Of a DNA stretch of 64,000 nt, positions 2,509 to 61,518 are shown in pieces. The notes beneath the pieces are model-generated. The model saw only the letters and a program-made list of their open reading frames with translations. It had not been told where the DNA came from and ran no database searches. A program made the position numbers and the translations under genes. Numbering within the stretch: position 1 is the first letter of the stretch; every line of letters begins with the position of its first letter. The stretch comes from a phage. The stretch is from assembly GCA_012365435.1 (NCBI GenBank), contig GCA_012365435.1_4518.1. The stretch is one strand, 5' to 3'.

Positions 2509-2529
2509 GCCAAAAAGAGCCCGAAGGCT
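2509..2529 (-). terminator. Tetraloop hairpin (AGAGCC-UUCG-GGCUCU on - strand) followed by U-run
   Basis: Inverted repeat agagcccgaaggctct with A5 on + strand upstream. Confidence 0.45.
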
Positions 2530-2530
2530 C

Positions 2531-2740
2531 TTAATCCACAATCGGGAGCAAAGTACGATAAACTTCAAAATTAGGGCCTTTTTCGTACTTATCAAAATTG
2601 TCCATAAAAATATGATAGGAATCGTTATTAGGAAAATCTAATATAATCTGAGAACAAGAGGTGGAAACATCTCCACCATCCTTCTTAGCTACAATAACTG
2701 TTTCTAAATAAGCTTTCATTATAAACCTGTCTGGGACCAC
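2531..2740 (-). CDS. Hypothetical small protein (69 aa; true start may be the internal Met at MKAYLET)
   Basis: ORF between ligase and alt; overlaps ligase 3' end by 22 nt if the long start is used. Confidence 0.4.
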   Translation of the reverse strand: MVPDRFIMKAYLETVIVAKKDGGDVSTSCSQIILDFPNNDSYHIFMDNFDKYEKGPNFEVYRTLLPIVD

Positions 2741-4212
2741 GGTCCAAATACGTCTTCAAATGAATCCGCTTCTGTTTTATCAAAACGGAACCCTTTAATA
2801 ATTGGAAGGAAAATACCTACAGTACCTTCACGGCCTTTAGAATGAACCCAACCATTACATTCGCAATCAGCAATACGTCCAATCAATTTACCTTCATGAG
2901 CTTCAGCCATTAATCGTTCACGGTCTAAATCATGACGCTCATCTAAAGGAATAAGAACCTTTACACCATCAACTGTTTTATGAGTTGTATCTTTAAACCC
3001 TGAACCACAATCGGTTGTAATACGACGACAACGTGATACGAGTTCGACACCACCTAATTTGTTAGGGTCTTTAGAGTGTTCATAGTATCCTACAACTTCT
3101 AAAGCGATATCAATAACTTCTTTAAATTTAATTAGGTTCTTAGAGCGTTTGTTTTCCCAGTATGAATCACGGTTTTTAAGGATAATACCTTCAAGACCTT
3201 GGTCAACATATTTTTTATAAACCACTTTAGCTTCGTCAAGATTACGAACTAACTGATTTTCAATTGGCTCAATTCGCTTAAAGCCTTCAGCCATATTTTC
3301 AAGAGCAGCAAAACGAACATCGTATTTCTGACCTTTAATTTTGCCATCAGAGTAGACTTCATCTAAAGGAACATAGTCCCAGGCTTGAAGAACCATACCT
3401 TCCGCTTCTTTAGGAGAAATAGTCCCTTGAAGAGATTTATTTGCTAAACCATTTGAAGTGCTACGGTCTGCAACTTGTACTTCTTCGGATTCTTCATTAT
3501 CGCCAAATAAGAACGACAGGTCATTTCCTGAGCTCACAGCCTTTTTAATATCAAATGAATGATAAACTAATTCACCGTCGATTAAAACCCCATTAGGGTG
3601 TCTTTCACGAGCTTCTTTAGTCATTTCCATTAGTTCATCTGCTAATAGAGTAAGACCATGGTATTCGTTACCGGCACGAGAAAAGAATTGAACGCCATCA
3701 TCGCGAACTTCAGCGAAACAACGAGCACCATCTGCCTTTAATTGGGCAAATGCAGGCCATTTAATATTTTTAGTAATCAATTTCTCATCATATGCAGATG
3801 CTAACATCTGTGGCTGCAATTGAATAAGTCCAGGCCACACCTTATTCGCGATAGACACTGAAGCACCTACTTCAAGGTCTCGCATCATTACACGACGAAG
3901 GACTTCTACATCATCAGGTTTACCGTCAGCGATATAACCCATGAGCTCTTTAATTGCAGCATTACCAGTGAGTTTACGAGTGGCTAATGTGAACTCAATA
4001 AAATCCAACATGTCATCTAATTCAAGAAGACCATACGCTTGAGACCTTTCACCTGGTCCTGGCCATTTCTTAATATAATACTGGATACCACGTGCATATG
4101 TTAAACGATACACACGTTCAAGTAATTTGTTGTCCTTATTTTTCTTAAGGATTTCTTGTTTTGTTTTAGTAGAACCGATCGCAGCTATTTGGTTTAAAAT
4201 ATCTAAAATCAT
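2719..4212 (-). CDS. 30: ATP-dependent DNA ligase, 497 aa
   Basis: KxDG adenylation motif (KADGARCF), length and overall match to T4 gp30. Confidence 0.95.
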   Translation of the reverse strand: MILDILNQIAAIGSTKTKQEILKKNKDNKLLERVYRLTYARGIQYYIKKWPGPGERSQAYGLLELDDMLDFIEFTLATRKLTGNAAIKELMGYIADGKPDDVEVLRRVMMRDLEVGASVSIANKVWPGLIQLQPQMLASAYDEKLITKNIKWPAFAQLKADGARCFAEVRDDGVQFFSRAGNEYHGLTLLADELMEMTKEARERHPNGVLIDGELVYHSFDIKKAVSSGNDLSFLFGDNEESEEVQVADRSTSNGLANKSLQGTISPKEAEGMVLQAWDYVPLDEVYSDGKIKGQKYDVRFAALENMAEGFKRIEPIENQLVRNLDEAKVVYKKYVDQGLEGIILKNRDSYWENKRSKNLIKFKEVIDIALEVVGYYEHSKDPNKLGGVELVSRCRRITTDCGSGFKDTTHKTVDGVKVLIPLDERHDLDRERLMAEAHEGKLIGRIADCECNGWVHSKGREGTVGIFLPIIKGFRFDKTEADSFEDVFGPWSQTGL

Positions 4213-44128: not shown

Positions 44129-45076
44129 TTATTCTGCAAATAATTCAGTAACGTCTGAAATTACTTCATAACGACAAGTACGCATCTTAGCATCACCGTA
44201 GTCAACCGGGATGGATACAACATCACGTGGATGAACTTTAACTTTCACAACTTTATCTGAGCTTGAACCAAAGTGGCGAATATAAGATTTAGCACAAACG
44301 TGGAGACCGCGAGAACAGGTTTGAGTATCATCGTCGTTAACTCGAGTACGAGGCATTGAAACAACTTTACCTGGGGAGTTATCAAATGTACCACTATAGC
44401 AGTCTAAATAGTCCTTACGAACTACTTTCCACGCATAGAAATGACCATCTTCAGTGATTTCAATATCGTTTGCAACCAAGAAGTCGAATAAACGTTGTAC
44501 AGCTTTTTCGCTCGGGTTTTCTAACAGGTTTTCAAGGAACGGCAGGTAGAATTTAAAGTCTTCGCCTTTTTCCATGGAATCAATAATACGGTTAACCAGC
44601 CCTGAACGAATCTCTATACCTTGATAAAATAAACTACCACCTTCAATAGTAACATTACCGTCAACAAACTTACTAATAGCTTTCTTGATGTTAATAAGTT
44701 CGACAGCTTTACTAAGGTTTCCTGCGACCAGATTAGCTTTAATTTCTTCAAAATTTGCATGACTTGATGGGGTCGCATTGTATGCTACGCGTCCTTCAAT
44801 GATTGAAATAAATTTAGATGACGCGTTCCATACGATTTCTGGACGATGACCTGTAATAATAGGTTCATCATTTTCTGGAACTTCTTCGATTACATAAGAG
44901 GCATCGTTTGCTTCAGGGACAACGCCTTCAGCTTTAAAATTCTTAACAATCTTACGAAGAGTATCTGTTGAAATGTCGAAGTAATCGGCAATTTCTTTAC
45001 GAGTCCATTTGCCTGATTCAACCAGGCCGTAAGCTTCTAACTGTTCTTCTTGGGACAAGCATTTGATATTGTACAT
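44129..45076 (-). CDS. rIIB: rIIB protein, 315 aa
   Basis: Strong match to T4 rIIB, especially C-terminal half. Confidence 0.93.
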   Translation of the reverse strand: MYNIKCLSQEEQLEAYGLVESGKWTRKEIADYFDISTDTLRKIVKNFKAEGVVPEANDASYVIEEVPENDEPIITGHRPEIVWNASSKFISIIEGRVAYNATPSSHANFEEIKANLVAGNLSKAVELINIKKAISKFVDGNVTIEGGSLFYQGIEIRSGLVNRIIDSMEKGEDFKFYLPFLENLLENPSEKAVQRLFDFLVANDIEITEDGHFYAWKVVRKDYLDCYSGTFDNSPGKVVSMPRTRVNDDDTQTCSRGLHVCAKSYIRHFGSSSDKVVKVKVHPRDVVSIPVDYGDAKMRTCRYEVISDVTELFAE

Positions 45077-45085
45077 AATGTTTCC

Positions 45086-47299
45086 TTATTTGGCCGCTTC
45101 CACGGCCTTCATGAATTTAACGATTTGAGCGACCTGTTCTTTGGAAAGAGTACCACGTCGTCCCATGTATTCTGACACAATATGATAATTGGTTTCAAAT
45201 TCAATAACCATTTTATCATCATTATCGTAAGCATTATCTTTAAGCTTATCGAAAATTTTAGCACACAATTCTAACTTCCTGTTCAGGTCTGTATTAGTAG
45301 CACCTGCGAATCGATTCCATCCCCAGCGATTATTTACTGTTGAGAGTTTTGCAAAGTCTTTACTGATTTCTTTGTTCTTAGAGCTAAAATATTTACTAAG
45401 GAAATTAAGCTCTTCATTACGAGTAATATGATTCAAATAAGGCTGTGCTCTACGACTTGGTGATACATACTCATCATAATCTACTTTATCGATTAGCATA
45501 ATATAGTCATTAATTGATTTTTCAAACAAACATTCTACTTCACCGAGTTTACGAACTTTCTTAGCAATCTGTGGACGAACTACAGTGAACTCTTTAATAC
45601 CTGACAAATCAGCAATACGAGTCAAGAAATTAGAGTCATAGTTCAACCAACCTTTATCTGCGTCAAGACATTCAGCGTTAGAACGATTACGAATTACAGC
45701 ATAACCTTGAATCTCATCAGCTTTACTGGCCGGAATAAAAAGGTCTTCTGATACCCAAACATCTTTTTCGTTCTTGAAGAAACGATGGGCACTCGGTGAT
45801 TTAGGACGAGGCTGCGATGAACGTTCTTTAACTTCAATCCACGGTTTAACCAATGCAAGAATTTCAGAGGTCTTATAAAATTTAAGGCTATCACCAGCGA
45901 AAATAACCTTTAATCGTTCCAGAAGTTTCATTGCAACTTCATCTTCCGGGTTAATGAATAATACGCTACTACCATATCCGGAAGGAACCTTATCAACGAG
46001 TGTTGATGCATCTGTGGAAGTCAAAGCATCGTTCAGAGCACGCATCATTGGTACGCGTCCTTTCACATCATCAATAACAATATCAATATGCTTACGACCA
46101 ATACCTAGCAGGCTATTAATTGAAATAGTTGAAGACGAGCTTCCGCTTTCACGAATACGACGAAGTCGTGGGTCTGAAACGATATCATATACAACACCAA
46201 GGTTGCACCATTCTGGTCCCATTTTAAAACGTTTGTACAACTCAGAATAAGTTAGTTGTTCTTTAGAATATTTCAGTGATTCAATATTAGAACCGGCTTT
46301 TTCCATGTATTTACGAGCAGAGTAACCAAGAGAATCGATTTCACGGAATACATGACGTGGATATTCACAATCAATCCATTTCTTAGAATCTTCAGCAAAT
46401 AATTTTGCATCAATTTCTGCAACGCGTTTATGGATATTTGCTACTGTACGTTTATCAAATGACAATGCTTCACGAGACGGGGCTACATCTAGTTCACCCA
46501 TAGGGAATTTAATATAAGCTGTAGTGCATCGCGTCATCATCCATGTTTGTTCTTTAATAACACTTCCGATTGGATATACAATACCACCATAAACAGCCAT
46601 GATATTACCACGTTCACCCCATGGAGCTTCCTTGGCCAAATATACATCGTCAAATTCAGGAAAGTATTTAATATCTTTAACACCGCGAACTTCTGCAATA
46701 TCACCTAGAGGACGCATAACATATGCAATTTCAGATGCGAACTTTTCAAAATCTTCTGGGTTAACAGGCACAACTACTTCAACGCCGGTACGGTCATCAG
46801 GGCCCATCTTATCTACAAAGGTTGGCTTAATCTGTGGACCGCTGTCATCTTGGTAGATTACGTAACCACGAACTTCACCATTGTGATAAGACGTAAGGTT
46901 AAACGTATCGGTATATGCTAGTGGAGCTTTAGAGCCGAGTCCGAATCCACCAATGAAATCGTTACTCGATGTTTTAGTTGAAGCAAAATATGAGTTATAG
47001 ATTCCTGGCTCTTCGTCATTACCTCGAATGGTGAAATCACTCATACCAGGACCAAAGTCTCGAACTACAAAACGTGGGTCTAAACGACCTGGAGCCTGAA
47101 CAATAAACTTATCAGTGCAACCATTAAGAATTTGCCCATCGATACAGTTTGTGATTAATTCACGTACACAAGCCAGTTCTTTGTTTGTATAAAGGTCATT
47201 AGACAAAATCTTATAAACTTTGCTATTGCCTTGAATAGTGAATGCTGTGCTCTTACCGCCTGAACCAATAATCGTTTCTTTAGCCGTTTCAATAATCAT
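45086..47299 (-). CDS. rIIA: rIIA protein, 737 aa
   Basis: Length and position directly upstream of rIIB. Confidence 0.9.
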   Translation of the reverse strand: MIIETAKETIIGSGGKSTAFTIQGNSKVYKILSNDLYTNKELACVRELITNCIDGQILNGCTDKFIVQAPGRLDPRFVVRDFGPGMSDFTIRGNDEEPGIYNSYFASTKTSSNDFIGGFGLGSKAPLAYTDTFNLTSYHNGEVRGYVIYQDDSGPQIKPTFVDKMGPDDRTGVEVVVPVNPEDFEKFASEIAYVMRPLGDIAEVRGVKDIKYFPEFDDVYLAKEAPWGERGNIMAVYGGIVYPIGSVIKEQTWMMTRCTTAYIKFPMGELDVAPSREALSFDKRTVANIHKRVAEIDAKLFAEDSKKWIDCEYPRHVFREIDSLGYSARKYMEKAGSNIESLKYSKEQLTYSELYKRFKMGPEWCNLGVVYDIVSDPRLRRIRESGSSSSTISINSLLGIGRKHIDIVIDDVKGRVPMMRALNDALTSTDASTLVDKVPSGYGSSVLFINPEDEVAMKLLERLKVIFAGDSLKFYKTSEILALVKPWIEVKERSSQPRPKSPSAHRFFKNEKDVWVSEDLFIPASKADEIQGYAVIRNRSNAECLDADKGWLNYDSNFLTRIADLSGIKEFTVVRPQIAKKVRKLGEVECLFEKSINDYIMLIDKVDYDEYVSPSRRAQPYLNHITRNEELNFLSKYFSSKNKEISKDFAKLSTVNNRWGWNRFAGATNTDLNRKLELCAKIFDKLKDNAYDNDDKMVIEFETNYHIVSEYMGRRGTLSKEQVAQIVKFMKAVEAAK

Positions 47300-47311: not shown

Positions 47312-47512
47312 TCACAAGTTACGTTTAAAAATTTCTGCTACTTCAAGAAGTTCTTCTTTAGTAGCTGTATCGGTTTGTATTTTATATCGAATTTCTTTAA
47401 AGCGTTCTTTAAAGGACTCTGCTGACTCGATATCAAAAAATCTTTGGATAAGCCGGAATTCCCGGAGCACTGCTTTATCAAAAAGTTCCAAGTCCACGTT
47501 ATACATTCTCAT
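47312..47512 (-). CDS. Hypothetical protein, 66 aa (rIIA.1 position)
   Basis: ORF. Confidence 0.5.
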   Translation of the reverse strand: MRMYNVDLELFDKAVLREFRLIQRFFDIESAESFKERFKEIRYKIQTDTATKEELLEVAEIFKRNL

Positions 47513-47604: not shown

Positions 47605-48705
47605 TTACGCTGTGAAGATTTTATCCCACATCGCAACAACTGCATCTCGATTATACTTCTTCCATACTGCTTCAGCACGTTTAACTCGAGCTTCGTATGT
47701 GTCAGTGAATTCTAATACAGCTTTTGTGTAAAGCGCAACTACTTCTTTCTTAGGAGTAGAGGAATCAATTTCTACACGCACAGTATCTGGGTCGTATTCG
47801 AATGTAGCATGAGGATAATCCTTAAAAACTAACTGGATTACAGGGACACCTTTAGAGATGGCTTCAATAGAACTATTCTCTACCGTGCCTGTGTCAGGAC
47901 ACGTATTAATAAGTGCTTTAGCTGTTTTAAGACGTTCCATGATTTCACTGTGTGGAGCATCAATAATAACAGGATATTTAGCTGGTGGTGCCCATTTGCT
48001 TGGACAATAACCAATACCATTTTCGCCTAGTGCTTTAATTGCTTCAAGAGCAACATCAGTGCGACGCATCTTAGTGTCATAACGTTGAGCACTAATAATC
48101 AAATCAGTTGCCGGGAGAACTTCTGGCTTTTCAGACAAACAAATAACCGGGTAGTCATCAGGTTCAAATAATGGATTTTCACGCCAGTAGTCATAATCAA
48201 TTTTGTCAGTAAGAGCTGAAGTCATATGACAATATTTACGTTCAAATTCACGGAATGCTTTAGTAGGAGCATAGCTCTTCCCACCGTTCTTGTGAATCTG
48301 GATAGTCTGATCCCAAATTTGAACAATACCACGAGACACCGGTTCAAACGGCGTAGCCATAAAATTCTTATGAACTTTAGAGAGTCCAGCATCTTTAATT
48401 GCTTGGACAGTTAGTTTAGTCGGTTCCATAGTAACAACAAAATCGTATTCATGGATGCCGGCTAGTTCAACAATCTTACGAGCCATAGTATAACTCATAC
48501 CTAGACTGAATTTAGTCAGATGACCAACAGGATGATGATTAACCTTCCAATCACCAAATGTGTCATTATCAAAACCGATATAATCAATATCGGCACCGAT
48601 AGAAACTAAATATTTCAACACATTTAAATGTACTGCTTCAAGACCACCTTGTACACGTTCTGGGTTAAATGGGACCGCACGAGATGGGATAAACATAACT
48701 TTCAT
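47605..48705 (-). CDS. GT-B-like glycosyltransferase, candidate DNA (hydroxymethylcytosine) arabinosyl/glycosyltransferase, 366 aa
   Basis: N-terminal MKVMFIP...GGLEAVHLNVLKYL and C-terminal TGTVENSSIEAISKGVPVI resemble GT-B (GT1/GT4-like) motifs; occupies the rIIA.1-39 interval where RB69 is recalled to carry its putative arabinosyltransferase. Confidence 0.55.
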   Translation of the reverse strand: MKVMFIPSRAVPFNPERVQGGLEAVHLNVLKYLVSIGADIDYIGFDNDTFGDWKVNHHPVGHLTKFSLGMSYTMARKIVELAGIHEYDFVVTMEPTKLTVQAIKDAGLSKVHKNFMATPFEPVSRGIVQIWDQTIQIHKNGGKSYAPTKAFREFERKYCHMTSALTDKIDYDYWRENPLFEPDDYPVICLSEKPEVLPATDLIISAQRYDTKMRRTDVALEAIKALGENGIGYCPSKWAPPAKYPVIIDAPHSEIMERLKTAKALINTCPDTGTVENSSIEAISKGVPVIQLVFKDYPHATFEYDPDTVRVEIDSSTPKKEVVALYTKAVLEFTDTYEARVKRAEAVWKKYNRDAVVAMWDKIFTA

Positions 48706-48732
48706 AATTAAGCCTTATTAAAATTAAAATGA

Positions 48733-48748
48733 AGCTCCTGAAGGAGCT
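48733..48748 (-). terminator. Hairpin downstream of gene 39
   Basis: agctcctgaaggagct followed on - strand by U-rich run. Confidence 0.4.
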
Positions 48749-48763
48749 TAGGACATCTATCAA

Positions 48764-50584
48764 TTAACCAAGCATCCAGTCTTTACGGAGTTCAGGGTCG
48801 TTACCCATGAGCATTTCAAATAGTTCTTTCCAATTTTCAGGAAGTTTAACTACGTCGTACACAGGGTTTTGAATCATTTCTTTATATTCATCCCGCTGAA
48901 GTGAGCCCAATCCCTTGATGTATCGAATACTATGCTTAGGCAGTGTATCTTTAACTTCTTCATACTCAGCTACAGTATAAAACCATTTTTGAGTTTTGCC
49001 AATTTGTGCAATAATTACGGGTGTTTTAACAAAGCGAATACGTCCTTGTTCAAACAATTCAGGCCAATTACTAAAGAAAGCAAGCAAAGCCGGATAGATA
49101 CTTCCAAGACCGTCGTGATCTGCATCAGTCATAATTGCAATATTACGATAGTTTGTATTCTCTGCCTTTTCACCAAGAATAAGACCTGTGATAGCACAGA
49201 TATCGAATAACTCTTTGTTCTTCATCATATCAGCATATGACATACCCCAGCTATTCATCACCTTACCACGTAATGGGAATCCACCGTGTAGTTCACGGTC
49301 ACGAACATCAATGAGATAACCAATTGCCGAATCACCTTCTGTTAAGAACAATGTCGTATCTGCATCTTTACCACATTGGTTAGCTTTAATATGCTTATGA
49401 ACCTTAGCTTTAGTTGCCTTTTTAGCTGCTTTAGTTTCTGCAGCCTTTTCTGCCGCCAATTTACGAGCTAATGCTGCTTCAACAATAGGCATAATCAAGG
49501 CTTCATTTTTAAGAAGTGCCTGAGCAATTTTCTTAGCATCTAATTGGATATGATTACGAATATCACCATACGTTGACGTTAAACGTTCTTTAGTCTGAGA
49601 ATCAAAACGCATGTTGCTCATGTCTCTAATAAACATCAACATTGTGAGACATTCTTTAACACGAGCTTTAGTGACTTCAATACCCTTATATTTCTTTTTA
49701 ATACCCGGCAAAAGATGTTCGCAGATATCGTCCATTACACATTCAACATGATGTCCACCATTTTTAGTATGGATGTTATTCACATAAGTTAAATGACGGA
49801 AGCCATCTGGTGATGTTGTGAATGCTATAGAGACTTTATCATTTTCTTGAATGATGTTATCTTCGCCAAATTGTTTAGCAAATCGTTTAAAATTACCATC
49901 GACCTTTTTACCATTAAATGTGAACTTGATATCAGGATAAACGACTGCCAATGTTTGAAGTCGGTCTAAAGTAATATCTAAATAAATTTGAGATAAATTA
50001 TGCTCTTCAAATGAAGAGAAATCAGGAGTGAAGATTACTTTAGTGCCTTTACCTTTAGATTTCTTAGAAGACCATGATTTGTTTTCCATTCCGTTTGAAC
50101 AGTTAACAGTGATTTCATTTTCGCCATCTGACGTGATGCCTGTAAACAACGTAGAGAAGATATTAGTTAAACTACTCCCGACGCCGTTCATACCACCAGT
50201 CTTGCGTTCAGAATCATCACCAAAGTTACCACCGGCCTTTGGAATAGTCCAGGCTGCTACAGGACCAGGAATTTGTTCACCCGTTTGGTCGGTAACTAAA
50301 CCTTGAGGAATACCACGTCCGTTATCTTCCACCGAAACTTGATTATTTTTAATTTGCACATCAATTTTATTTGCAAACTTAAATGATGTACGAATAGCTT
50401 CATCAACCGAGTTGTCAATAATCTCATCGATTAATTTAACCAGACCAGGAACATATTCAACTTGTTGATATTTACCAAACAAAAAACGCTCGTGGGCTTC
50501 TTTAGCAGAAGAACCAATATACATGCCACTACGTTTCTTAATATGTTCTACATCTGACAGTACCTTAATTTCATTTTTAATCAT
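48764..50584 (-). CDS. 39: DNA topoisomerase II large (ATPase) subunit, unsplit gene 39 (39 and 60 as one ORF), 606 aa
   Basis: GHKL ATPase N-terminus and continuous C-terminal region; no separate gene 60 or bypass element. Confidence 0.9.
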   Translation of the reverse strand: MIKNEIKVLSDVEHIKKRSGMYIGSSAKEAHERFLFGKYQQVEYVPGLVKLIDEIIDNSVDEAIRTSFKFANKIDVQIKNNQVSVEDNGRGIPQGLVTDQTGEQIPGPVAAWTIPKAGGNFGDDSERKTGGMNGVGSSLTNIFSTLFTGITSDGENEITVNCSNGMENKSWSSKKSKGKGTKVIFTPDFSSFEEHNLSQIYLDITLDRLQTLAVVYPDIKFTFNGKKVDGNFKRFAKQFGEDNIIQENDKVSIAFTTSPDGFRHLTYVNNIHTKNGGHHVECVMDDICEHLLPGIKKKYKGIEVTKARVKECLTMLMFIRDMSNMRFDSQTKERLTSTYGDIRNHIQLDAKKIAQALLKNEALIMPIVEAALARKLAAEKAAETKAAKKATKAKVHKHIKANQCGKDADTTLFLTEGDSAIGYLIDVRDRELHGGFPLRGKVMNSWGMSYADMMKNKELFDICAITGLILGEKAENTNYRNIAIMTDADHDGLGSIYPALLAFFSNWPELFEQGRIRFVKTPVIIAQIGKTQKWFYTVAEYEEVKDTLPKHSIRYIKGLGSLQRDEYKEMIQNPVYDVVKLPENWKELFEMLMGNDPELRKDWMLG

Positions 50585-52536: not shown

Positions 52537-52956
52537 TTATGCGAAAGCAGCTGGGCTATATTTTTTGATTTGGAATTCAGGAACTACCATGAACTGACCA
52601 GCGAAAACAATGTTATAAAGCTTAACACCATCTTCTACCCAACGGTCGCTAATAAATCCGGCGATTTGCTTAGTTTTCCATGGCGTTCCATCAGTTGCCG
52701 CAGCAATAGTGAATTCATGGTCTTTTTCAACAGAAACTGATCTGCATAGTCCCCATTTGAACGCTTTTTCTTCTGGTTCAATGAATTGACTTTTAACGTA
52801 ACCAATGTTACCATCGGCGTCACGAACTTTAACTTCGTTACGTCCAAAAACTGGATCACTCACAGAAAGAACTTCAACCAACTTCCCGGCAACTTTAGAG
52901 CGAGAAGCAACAGATACATATACGTAATCACCTGTAGAGAGATTTACAATATTCAT
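52537..52956 (-). CDS. Hypothetical protein, 139 aa (member 1 of tandem paralogue trio)
   Basis: Shares C-terminal GFISDRWVEDGVKLYNIVFAGQF.VVP motif with the next two ORFs. Confidence 0.55.
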   Translation of the reverse strand: MNIVNLSTGDYVYVSVASRSKVAGKLVEVLSVSDPVFGRNEVKVRDADGNIGYVKSQFIEPEEKAFKWGLCRSVSVEKDHEFTIAAATDGTPWKTKQIAGFISDRWVEDGVKLYNIVFAGQFMVVPEFQIKKYSPAAFA

Positions 52957-52965
52957 AATAATTCC

Positions 52966-53421
52966 TTAAGCTTTACGAGGAGACACATAGCGAGTGATTT
53001 CAGATTCTTTAACAACTCGGAAGTCACCTAAGAATACGATATTGTATAACTTTTCACCATCTTCAACCCATTGGTCACTAATGAAGCCGCACATAGTATC
53101 AGTTTTGCTTGGATAACCGTATTCATCGATGAAGTCAAATTCTTTATCAGTCTGGAATTCAACACCTTTACACAAGGCCCATTTGAACTGTACATTAGGT
53201 TCAGTAGAAGCAAAATGAGCACTCACATGAGTTTCCAAGAATTTAGGACTTACGTAAGCGTACTGAGTTTCAGTTTTTCCGGAACTAGGAATGATTCGAA
53301 CTTTAACTTCTTTAACACGTCCAGTACCATTAGTACGAAGTCCGACAACTTCAACCAGACGACCTGCAGCTTTAGAACGAGATGCAGATGATACACGCTT
53401 AATTTCACCAATAGTAATCAT
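52966..53421 (-). CDS. Hypothetical protein, 151 aa (member 2 of tandem paralogue trio)
   Basis: GFISDQWVEDGEKLYNIVFLGDFRVV. Confidence 0.55.
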   Translation of the reverse strand: MITIGEIKRVSSASRSKAAGRLVEVVGLRTNGTGRVKEVKVRIIPSSGKTETQYAYVSPKFLETHVSAHFASTEPNVQFKWALCKGVEFQTDKEFDFIDEYGYPSKTDTMCGFISDQWVEDGEKLYNIVFLGDFRVVKESEITRYVSPRKA

Positions 53422-60709: not shown

Positions 60710-61246
60710 TTAATAACCTCGGTCTTGACGAGCAAAGTTTTCAGCATTCTTCAGATAATACAGTTTAAAGATTTCTTCAGCCGAAAGACCTATACCTTGG
60801 AACATATTCAGAACGAAATGGAGAATATCAATCATTTCAAACTTAATTTCCAGTTGGTCTTCAGGAGTCAGTTCATCGATACGACGATTTCGATATTCAG
60901 CATGTTGTGCTTTCCAAGGTTTCCATACAGCAGATGCATCTTTTTCACCATTGCTCATACCACCAAGTGAAGTCAGCAGTTCACGGAATTCATCATCAAT
61001 ATAATCTTTCTGATTACGCAGCCAATCAACAACATCACCGGCAGTAGCCAATTCATCAGGATGTTTGTTATGTTCAGGCTTGTCATTAGCCAGACGAACC
61101 TGTAAAGATTTCTGCATATCAAGCATTACCTGCAGTGGGTCTTTATCTTCGTGAATCAGAGCATTAAAATAAGCTTCTTCTGCTTTATCAACACCAGAAA
61201 TAAGTTGTGAACATTCATTAAAGTGCGCCATTATTTTTCCTTTCAA
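60710..61246 (-). CDS. 56: dCTP pyrophosphatase (dCTPase/dUTPase) gp56, 178 aa
   Basis: Close match to T4 gp56. Confidence 0.92.
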   Translation of the reverse strand: MKGKIMAHFNECSQLISGVDKAEEAYFNALIHEDKDPLQVMLDMQKSLQVRLANDKPEHNKHPDELATAGDVVDWLRNQKDYIDDEFRELLTSLGGMSNGEKDASAVWKPWKAQHAEYRNRRIDELTPEDQLEIKFEMIDILHFVLNMFQGIGLSAEEIFKLYYLKNAENFARQDRGY

Positions 61247-61320
61247 TTCAGTAATAAGTGAGTTAATTCTAACATTAATTTTATAAAGCGTAATAAATAA
61301 TAGGTAACTAAGGAGATATT

Positions 61321-61518
61321 ATGTTTAAACTTCCATCGTTAATCAACGCTATTAAAGGCAATAAAAAGAAAACTGCTATCGCTGCAATAGTTGTAGGTGG
61401 CATTATTTCATGGAACTTCGGGATTGCACCATTGTTAGTTGCCCATGGTATTATAGTTCCTTCTGTTCCATTGGATACTGTAGTTGATTTGGCCTTTGCT
61501 ATTATAGGGCTTGTTTAA
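61321..61518 (+). CDS. Small hydrophobic protein, 65 aa, on opposite strand to neighbours
   Basis: ORF with aggagatattATG SD; two predicted hydrophobic segments. Confidence 0.4.
   Translation: MFKLPSLINAIKGNKKKTAIAAIVVGGIISWNFGIAPLLVAHGIIVPSVPLDTVVDLAFAIIGLV

Follow-up and report, generated by a model that had tools for sequence, protein, structure and literature searches.

What is encoded by the 366-aa ORF that separates rIIA.1 from gene 39 in this phage, and which step of which pathway might its product carry out? A reading of the letters of the window (the whole 64,000-nucleotide stretch of DNA analysed) had proposed, without database searches, a GT-B-like glycosyltransferase encoded between rIIA.1 and an unsplit gene 39, at the position where RB69 carries ORF003c, a proposed arabinosyltransferase of 5-hydroxymethylcytosine (5-hmC). 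Together with a gp56 dCTPase in the window, this was taken to suggest a genome with hypermodified cytosines and a sugar other than the glucose of T4. The features that bear on these proposals are as follows.

44129-45076: rIIB, on the downstream side of the 366-aa ORF
45086-47299: rIIA (PHROG 612)
47312-47512, minus strand: rIIA.1, 66 aa, downstream neighbour of the 366-aa ORF (Pfam PF24210 T4_RIIA1, E 5.5e-30)
47605-48705, minus strand: the 366-aa ORF, likely a GT-B DNA arabinosyltransferase and by sequence the ortholog of RB69 ORF003c/gp3 (PHROG 8302, PDB 9iqz/9ir0)
48713-48716, minus strand: putative Shine-Dalgarno sequence AAGG, 7 nt upstream of the ATG at 48705, inferred from sequence
48732-48749, minus strand: hairpin in the gap between gene 39 and the glycosyltransferase (GT) gene, with a 7-bp stem and a 4-nt loop (AAGCTCC TTCA GGAGCTT), followed by CATTTTAATT
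48764-50584, minus strand: unsplit gene 39, topoisomerase II large subunit (T4 gp39 and gp60 fused), 606 aa (PHROG 543, E 1.5e-286)
60710-61231, minus strand: gp56 dCTPase/dUTPase homolog (69% identity to T4 gp56, tblastn E 7e-80)

The ORF opens with an ATG and comprises 366 codons and a stop, exactly where this sequence-only reading had placed it, with rIIB, rIIA and rIIA.1 downstream and gene 39 upstream. Gene 39 is indeed unsplit: in BLASTP, T4 gp39 matches its residues 1-474 (79% identity) and T4 gp60 its residues 473-604 (83%), all within the one 606-aa protein. T4 itself has genes 60, 60.1 and mobA at the rIIA.1-gene 39 junction, in agreement with the sequence-only reading on gene 60 and mobA. 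Comparison of the ORF with four orthologs yielded dN/dS values of 0.04-0.06, and it is thus a functional gene under strong purifying selection.

The hairpin lies within the 58-bp gap that runs from the stop of gene 39 to the start of the GT gene. GC-rich and with a T-rich tract behind it, it has the look of a terminator or of an element stabilizing RNA; the PhAPEC2 record has a 'terminator' annotated at the homologous spot. A hairpin scan around the ORF returned one site relative to 1.1 expected by chance, so that the hairpin is not significant on its own, and promoter and terminator scans of the same surroundings found nothing above shuffled controls. In Escherichia phage AV111 (OR352941.1, 3949-4746), gene 39 and the GT gene are separated by an inserted homing endonuclease gene. 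As T4 has mobA at the same junction, mobile endonucleases seem to settle here repeatedly. The gene 39-GT junction in the window is free of a homing endonuclease insert.

Over its final 25 kb (39001-64000), the window shares 96-97% identity with Mosigvirus genomes, among them moha, Bas47 (AlbertHofmann) and NicPhage, and phage NP is 96.1% identical over the same region. The gp56 homolog expected by the sequence-only reading is present, scoring 27.7 bits with Pfam dUTPase_2 against a cut-off of 22.9, and is syntenic with the 'dCTPase / dCDPase' of Bas47. The neighbourhood of gene 56 departs from that of T4 in that the gap of approximately 280 bp between the gp56 and gp61 homologs (61232-61514) is devoid of a dam methyltransferase gene; the Bas47 record has a small opposite-strand ORF annotated at the equivalent spot. 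No segF was found beside gene 56. Elsewhere in the window, two adjacent paralogous ORFs of 139 and 151 aa (52537-52956 and 52966-53421, both on the minus strand) share the motifs FKW.LC and GFISD.WVEDG.KLYNIVF, in the counterpart of the motB.1/motB.2 area of T4.

The identity of the 366-aa product was addressed through its relatives. Comparison with RB69 ORF003c and the T4 glucosyltransferases, a check proposed along with the original reading, gave 97.5% identity to RB69 ORF003c/gp3 (NP_861693.1). In BLASTP, the best E-values with T4 alpha-GT and beta-GT were 4.9 and 1.4, which amounts to no similarity, and the same holds for the other Mosigvirus GT (Bas47_0146, equivalent to RB69 gp46:47; E 3.0). 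The RB69 protein shares the length of 366 aa and likewise has rIIA.1 and an unsplit gene 39 as neighbours; the few substitutions that separate the two are conservative, and no functionally meaningful difference was detected. The order rIIA, rIIA.1, GT and unsplit gene 39 is common to the window, Bas47, HY126 and RB69 (2523-3620), which bears out the statement in the sequence-only reading that ORF003c occupies this position. PHROG 8302, described as 'unknown function', matches residues 1-366 of 366 (E 1.7e-221). Judged by sequence, the ORF is orthologous to both RB69 ORF003c/gp3 and the HY126 glycosyltransferase.

The HY126 protein is of particular value here. It has been crystallized in the apo form (PDB 9IQZ) and with UDP (9IR0), both released on 2025-07-16 as 'phage HY126 glycosyltransferase' (names per the Foldseek PDB library). 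The crystallized sequence is 97.8% identical to our ORF (E 1.6e-248), with eight of 366 residues differing (E16D, N56T, E176A, P182A, D183E, S191N, I231V and S315F, from the ORF to the PDB sequence), while the HY126 GenBank protein is 97.3% identical. At position 56, all six aligned sequences have N where HY126 has T; variation within the family is seen at the seven others. All eight differences also separate the ORF from the HY126 GenBank protein, and may thus be regarded as tolerated variation among orthologs. The GenBank entry for HY126 (PP658200.1, 3001-4101) has its own peculiarity, reading L288-G289 where PDB 9iqz and every other family member have an invariant P288-V289. The likely cause is a sequencing error in GenBank, or else a corrected expression construct in the PDB. 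Another irregular record is that of Shigella phage JK45 (MK962757.1, 2207-3212), in which 503 bp covering the 3' end of the GT gene are perfectly duplicated in tandem. GT residues 237-366 are thereby encoded a second time, without change, in an additional ORF of 136 aa; the repeat may have arisen very recently or stem from the assembly.

The product has the GT-B fold, with two Rossmann-like domains and a nucleotide-sugar site in the cleft between them, and the binding of UDP is known from the crystal structure of the 98%-identical HY126 protein. The GT-B character claimed from motifs was therefore sound at the level of the fold, whereas the motifs themselves are invisible to domain libraries: Pfam returned no family at E<=1, its models of the CAZy GT4 type (Glycos_transf_1 / Glyco_trans_4-like) included, and NCBIfam likewise returned none. 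A family profile searched against PDB sequences matched the phage ortholog 9iqz alone. The AlphaFold model, computed from a six-sequence alignment, has a low pLDDT of 59.9. This weakness follows from the shallowness of the alignment, as the protein database search yielded five clusters in all, and the model was used solely as a consistency check against the crystal structure. Foldseek superposed it on 9ir0 with a TM score of 0.71, and the remaining matches listed are all GT-B enzymes (for example BshA, PimA, MshA, SnogD and YjiC). The nearest structural relatives are mostly retaining enzymes of the GT4 family.

Residues G20, G21, R208, E276 and E281 are invariant throughout the alignment, which reaches as far as relatives 42% identical to the ORF. 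Thomas et al. (2018; PMC6024577) aligned G20, an arginine and E281 to phosphate- and ribose-binding residues of T4 alpha-GT; the arginine is numbered 207 in that study, and the invariant one is R208 here. In a check for an EX7E motif, E281 (within 'IEAISKGVPV') proved invariant. The residue eight positions upstream is G273, and the nearest invariant glutamate is E276, giving EX4E.

The chemistry in which such an enzyme may participate has been revised since its first description. Thomas et al. reported arabinose in RB69 DNA and suggested that ORF003c, as a GT-B arabinosyltransferase, attaches it to hmC. Using NMR and MS/MS, Lee et al. (2026; PMC13326640) described the RB69 modification as beta-D-Araf-(1->3)-alpha-D-Araf ether-linked to 5-hydroxy-2'-deoxycytidine, alongside a mono-arabinosyl form. 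The expectation of a hypermodified cytosine carrying a sugar other than glucose thus agrees with the arabinose pathway, but the acceptor base is 5-hydroxycytosine rather than 5-hmC (PMC13326640, PMC13390438). The associated expectation of a gene 42 has to be amended in the same sense, as the RB69 homolog (gp48) is a flavin-dependent 5-hydroxy-dCMP synthase (PMC13326640). The same account assigns the first transfer, as a proposal, to gp46:47, encoded in a cluster flanked by uvsX and the DNA polymerase gene; gp3 (RB69p003) is named 'beta-arabinosyltransferase 2', its step being likewise a proposal. The view of ORF003c-type proteins as 5-hmC arabinosyltransferases, repeated in the sequence-only reading, has accordingly given way to the proposed transfer of a second, beta-linked arabinose onto the first instead of glycosylation of the base. 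In phage NP, mono- and di-arabinosyl-dC occur in a 1:4 ratio (PMC13390438).

How much of this pathway does our phage carry? Searched by tblastn, the window contains two components, gp56 and the 366-aa ORF, and returned no gp42-type synthase, first GT, arabinose-5-phosphate isomerase, AfhE-like enzyme, a-gt or b-gt. In close relatives, the 5hodCMP synthase, first GT and UDP-arabinose genes lie just beyond the position equivalent to the end of the window; in Bas47, where uvsX and the DNA polymerase gene flank the cluster, the distance from that point is a few kb. By analogy with these relatives, we infer that the modification cluster is present in this phage as well.

We surveyed 50,697 phage records by tblastn for the distribution of the family. 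PHROG 8302 was found in 212 of them, comprising 156 Mosigvirus-type records (at least 95% identity, one copy each), 55 Acinetobacter phages (approximately 42% identity, two places per record) and a single Tegunavirus. In the Acinetobacter phage DLP3, the two places correspond to gp77 and gp76, which are adjacent, reside inside the modification cluster and are 42.6% and 41% identical to the ORF over its full length. The first GT encoded in the cluster is considerably more widespread, occurring in 349 records, including phages of Klebsiella, Serratia, Enterobacter, Proteus and Yersinia; these last carry no homolog of the 366-aa ORF family. The 212-record distribution is nested inside the 349-record distribution. 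Furthermore, the family copy number of zero, one or two parallels the mono-, di- and tri-arabinosylation reported for Thanatos, for RB69, NP and Bas46-47, and for DLP3, respectively. Nesting and copy number together mark the family as an accessory addition to a wider core pathway, supporting chain extension and arguing against attachment to the base.

On these grounds we consider it likely, with good confidence, that the ORF encodes an accessory DNA arabinosyltransferase of Mosigviruses, orthologous by sequence to RB69 gp3/ORF003c and the HY126 GT, which adds the second, beta-linked Araf. The sequence of events would begin with gp56, whose dCTPase activity would clear unmodified dCTP from the nucleotide pool. 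A thymidylate-synthase homolog would then make 5-hydroxy-dCMP, to be incorporated during replication, and phage enzymes would supply UDP-D-arabinofuranose; in HY126, AfhE and AfhF produce UDP-arabinose (PMC13326640). The cluster-encoded GT would place an alpha-Araf on the 5-hydroxyl of the base. Finally, the 366-aa product, as a UDP-binding GT-B enzyme, would add a second Araf through a beta-(1->3) linkage to the first arabinose on the DNA, giving di-arabinosyl-5-hydroxycytosine, and the bulkier sugar would confer stronger protection against DNA-targeting defences. The donor in this second step would be UDP-Araf. The product probably acts during or after replication, because its gene sits among T4-type early and middle genes. 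The assignment to the second step is most likely correct by analogy with the proposal for RB69 gp3, the extension activity of DLP3 gp76/gp77 and the phyletic nesting.

The strongest competitor to a role in chain extension has the 366-aa product as the primary transferase, placing the first arabinose directly onto the modified cytosine. Thomas et al. put ORF003c forward as 'the' arabinosyltransferase of the final step (PMC6024577), and the Bas47 ortholog is annotated 'putative hmC-arabinosyltransferase'. This reading is nonetheless unlikely. Firstly, the second GT, inside the biosynthetic cluster, is far more widespread (349 records, against 212), and there are phages with the cluster GT alone: Thanatos is mono-arabinosylated and has a single ara-GT, syntenic with gp46:47 (PMC13326640). 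Secondly, the copy number of the family tracks the count of extra arabinoses. Thirdly, the DLP3 paralogs extend DNA which is already arabinosylated, gp76 and gp77 jointly using UDP-Araf in vitro to attach a third arabinose to RB69 DNA, while none of the DLP3 GTs is active singly on 5hoC DNA (PMC13326640).

An acceptor other than DNA, be it host LPS, a lipid, a protein or a small molecule, might be suspected from the distance of approximately 20 kb between the gene and the modification cluster, and from the closest other structures, which act on small molecules or lipids (BshA, PimA, MshA and antibiotic GTs). We judge such a function very improbable, however, since the family is confined to phages which also carry the 5hoC/arabinose pathway, and its paralogs in Acinetobacter phages sit inside the cluster and act on DNA in vitro (PMC13326640). 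A T4-type DNA alpha-glucosyltransferase, as labelled in RefSeq NC_018855.1 (HX01) and several Acinetobacter phage records, has next to no likelihood, the label having been rejected for lack of BLASTP similarity to either T4 enzyme, and RB69 and NP DNA containing arabinose, not glucose, with RB69 lacking homologs of the T4 glucosyltransferases (PMC6024577, PMC13326640, PMC13390438).

Returning to the accessory arabinosyltransferase, comparison with better-known systems helps to place it. DLP3 gp76/gp77 (beta-arabinosyltransferases 2/3) belong to the same family but form tandem paralogs inside the cluster and lead to a tri-arabinosyl product, whereas the Mosigvirus gene is a single copy outside it. 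T4 alpha-GT (GT72) and beta-GT (GT63) resemble it in fold, in the use of a UDP-sugar, in acting post-replicatively on DNA and in an anti-restriction role. They differ in transferring glucose onto the hydroxymethyl group of 5-hmC, in genomic position and in the lack of pairwise similarity; a relation of the ORF003c family to the T4 enzymes has been reported at the profile level only (PMC6024577). The TAGT / beta-alpha-GT of T2 and T6, which makes gentiobiosyl-hmC, is an analogue in adding a second sugar onto the first on DNA cytosine (PMC13390438); by its description, it is set apart from the 366-aa product by protein family, sugar and linkage.

The stereochemistry of the proposed step is a further point. 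A beta product formed from the presumed UDP-alpha-D-Araf donor calls for an inverting mechanism, and as the linkages are alpha and then beta and a single donor is known, inversion must occur in one of the two GT4-like enzymes. Tentatively, the family might consist of beta-D-arabinofuranosyltransferases that invert in spite of a GT4-like scaffold, normally associated with retention, and that have as acceptor a sugar already situated on duplex DNA; we regard this as possible, if doubtful. Were it true, the family, to which Pfam and NCBIfam are blind, would in effect be new at the level of CAZy.

The consequences of arabinosylation for the phage have been documented in part. Arabinosylated 5-hydroxycytosine shields Mosigvirus DNA from type II restriction enzymes (PMC13326640), and protection from the DNA glycosylase Brig1 and from type I CRISPR-Cas has been reported. 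Deletion of the arabinosyltransferase Aat, possibly the counterpart of the 366-aa ORF, reportedly renders Bas46 sensitive to a defence system carried on a plasmid. GmrSD-type enzymes such as BrxU still cleave arabinosylated DNA (PMC13390438). Tri-arabinosylated DLP3 DNA resists MluCI and di-arabinosylated RB69 DNA does not (PMC13326640), and the number of arabinoses may thus alter which enzymes can cut the DNA.

The remark in the sequence-only reading that little is known of this enzyme class has been overtaken by the publication of the apo and UDP-bound crystal structures, the UDP-Araf pathway in HY126, the assays of the DLP3 paralogs and the effects on defence. Publications now cover the gene and its family, a crystal structure and the proposed function. 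Database annotation is, at present, inconsistent, with homologs labelled 'hypothetical protein', 'DNA alpha-glucosyltransferase' and 'putative hmC-arabinosyltransferase'. Neither enzymatic label fits the chemistry of arabinosyl-5-hydroxycytosine, and all three need correcting. For a Mosigvirus-type genome which carries this gene, di-arabinosyl-5-hydroxycytosine becomes predictable, and the gene may serve as an annotation marker. As arabinose protects against DNA-targeting enzymes, the gene is also relevant to the choice and engineering of phages for therapy.
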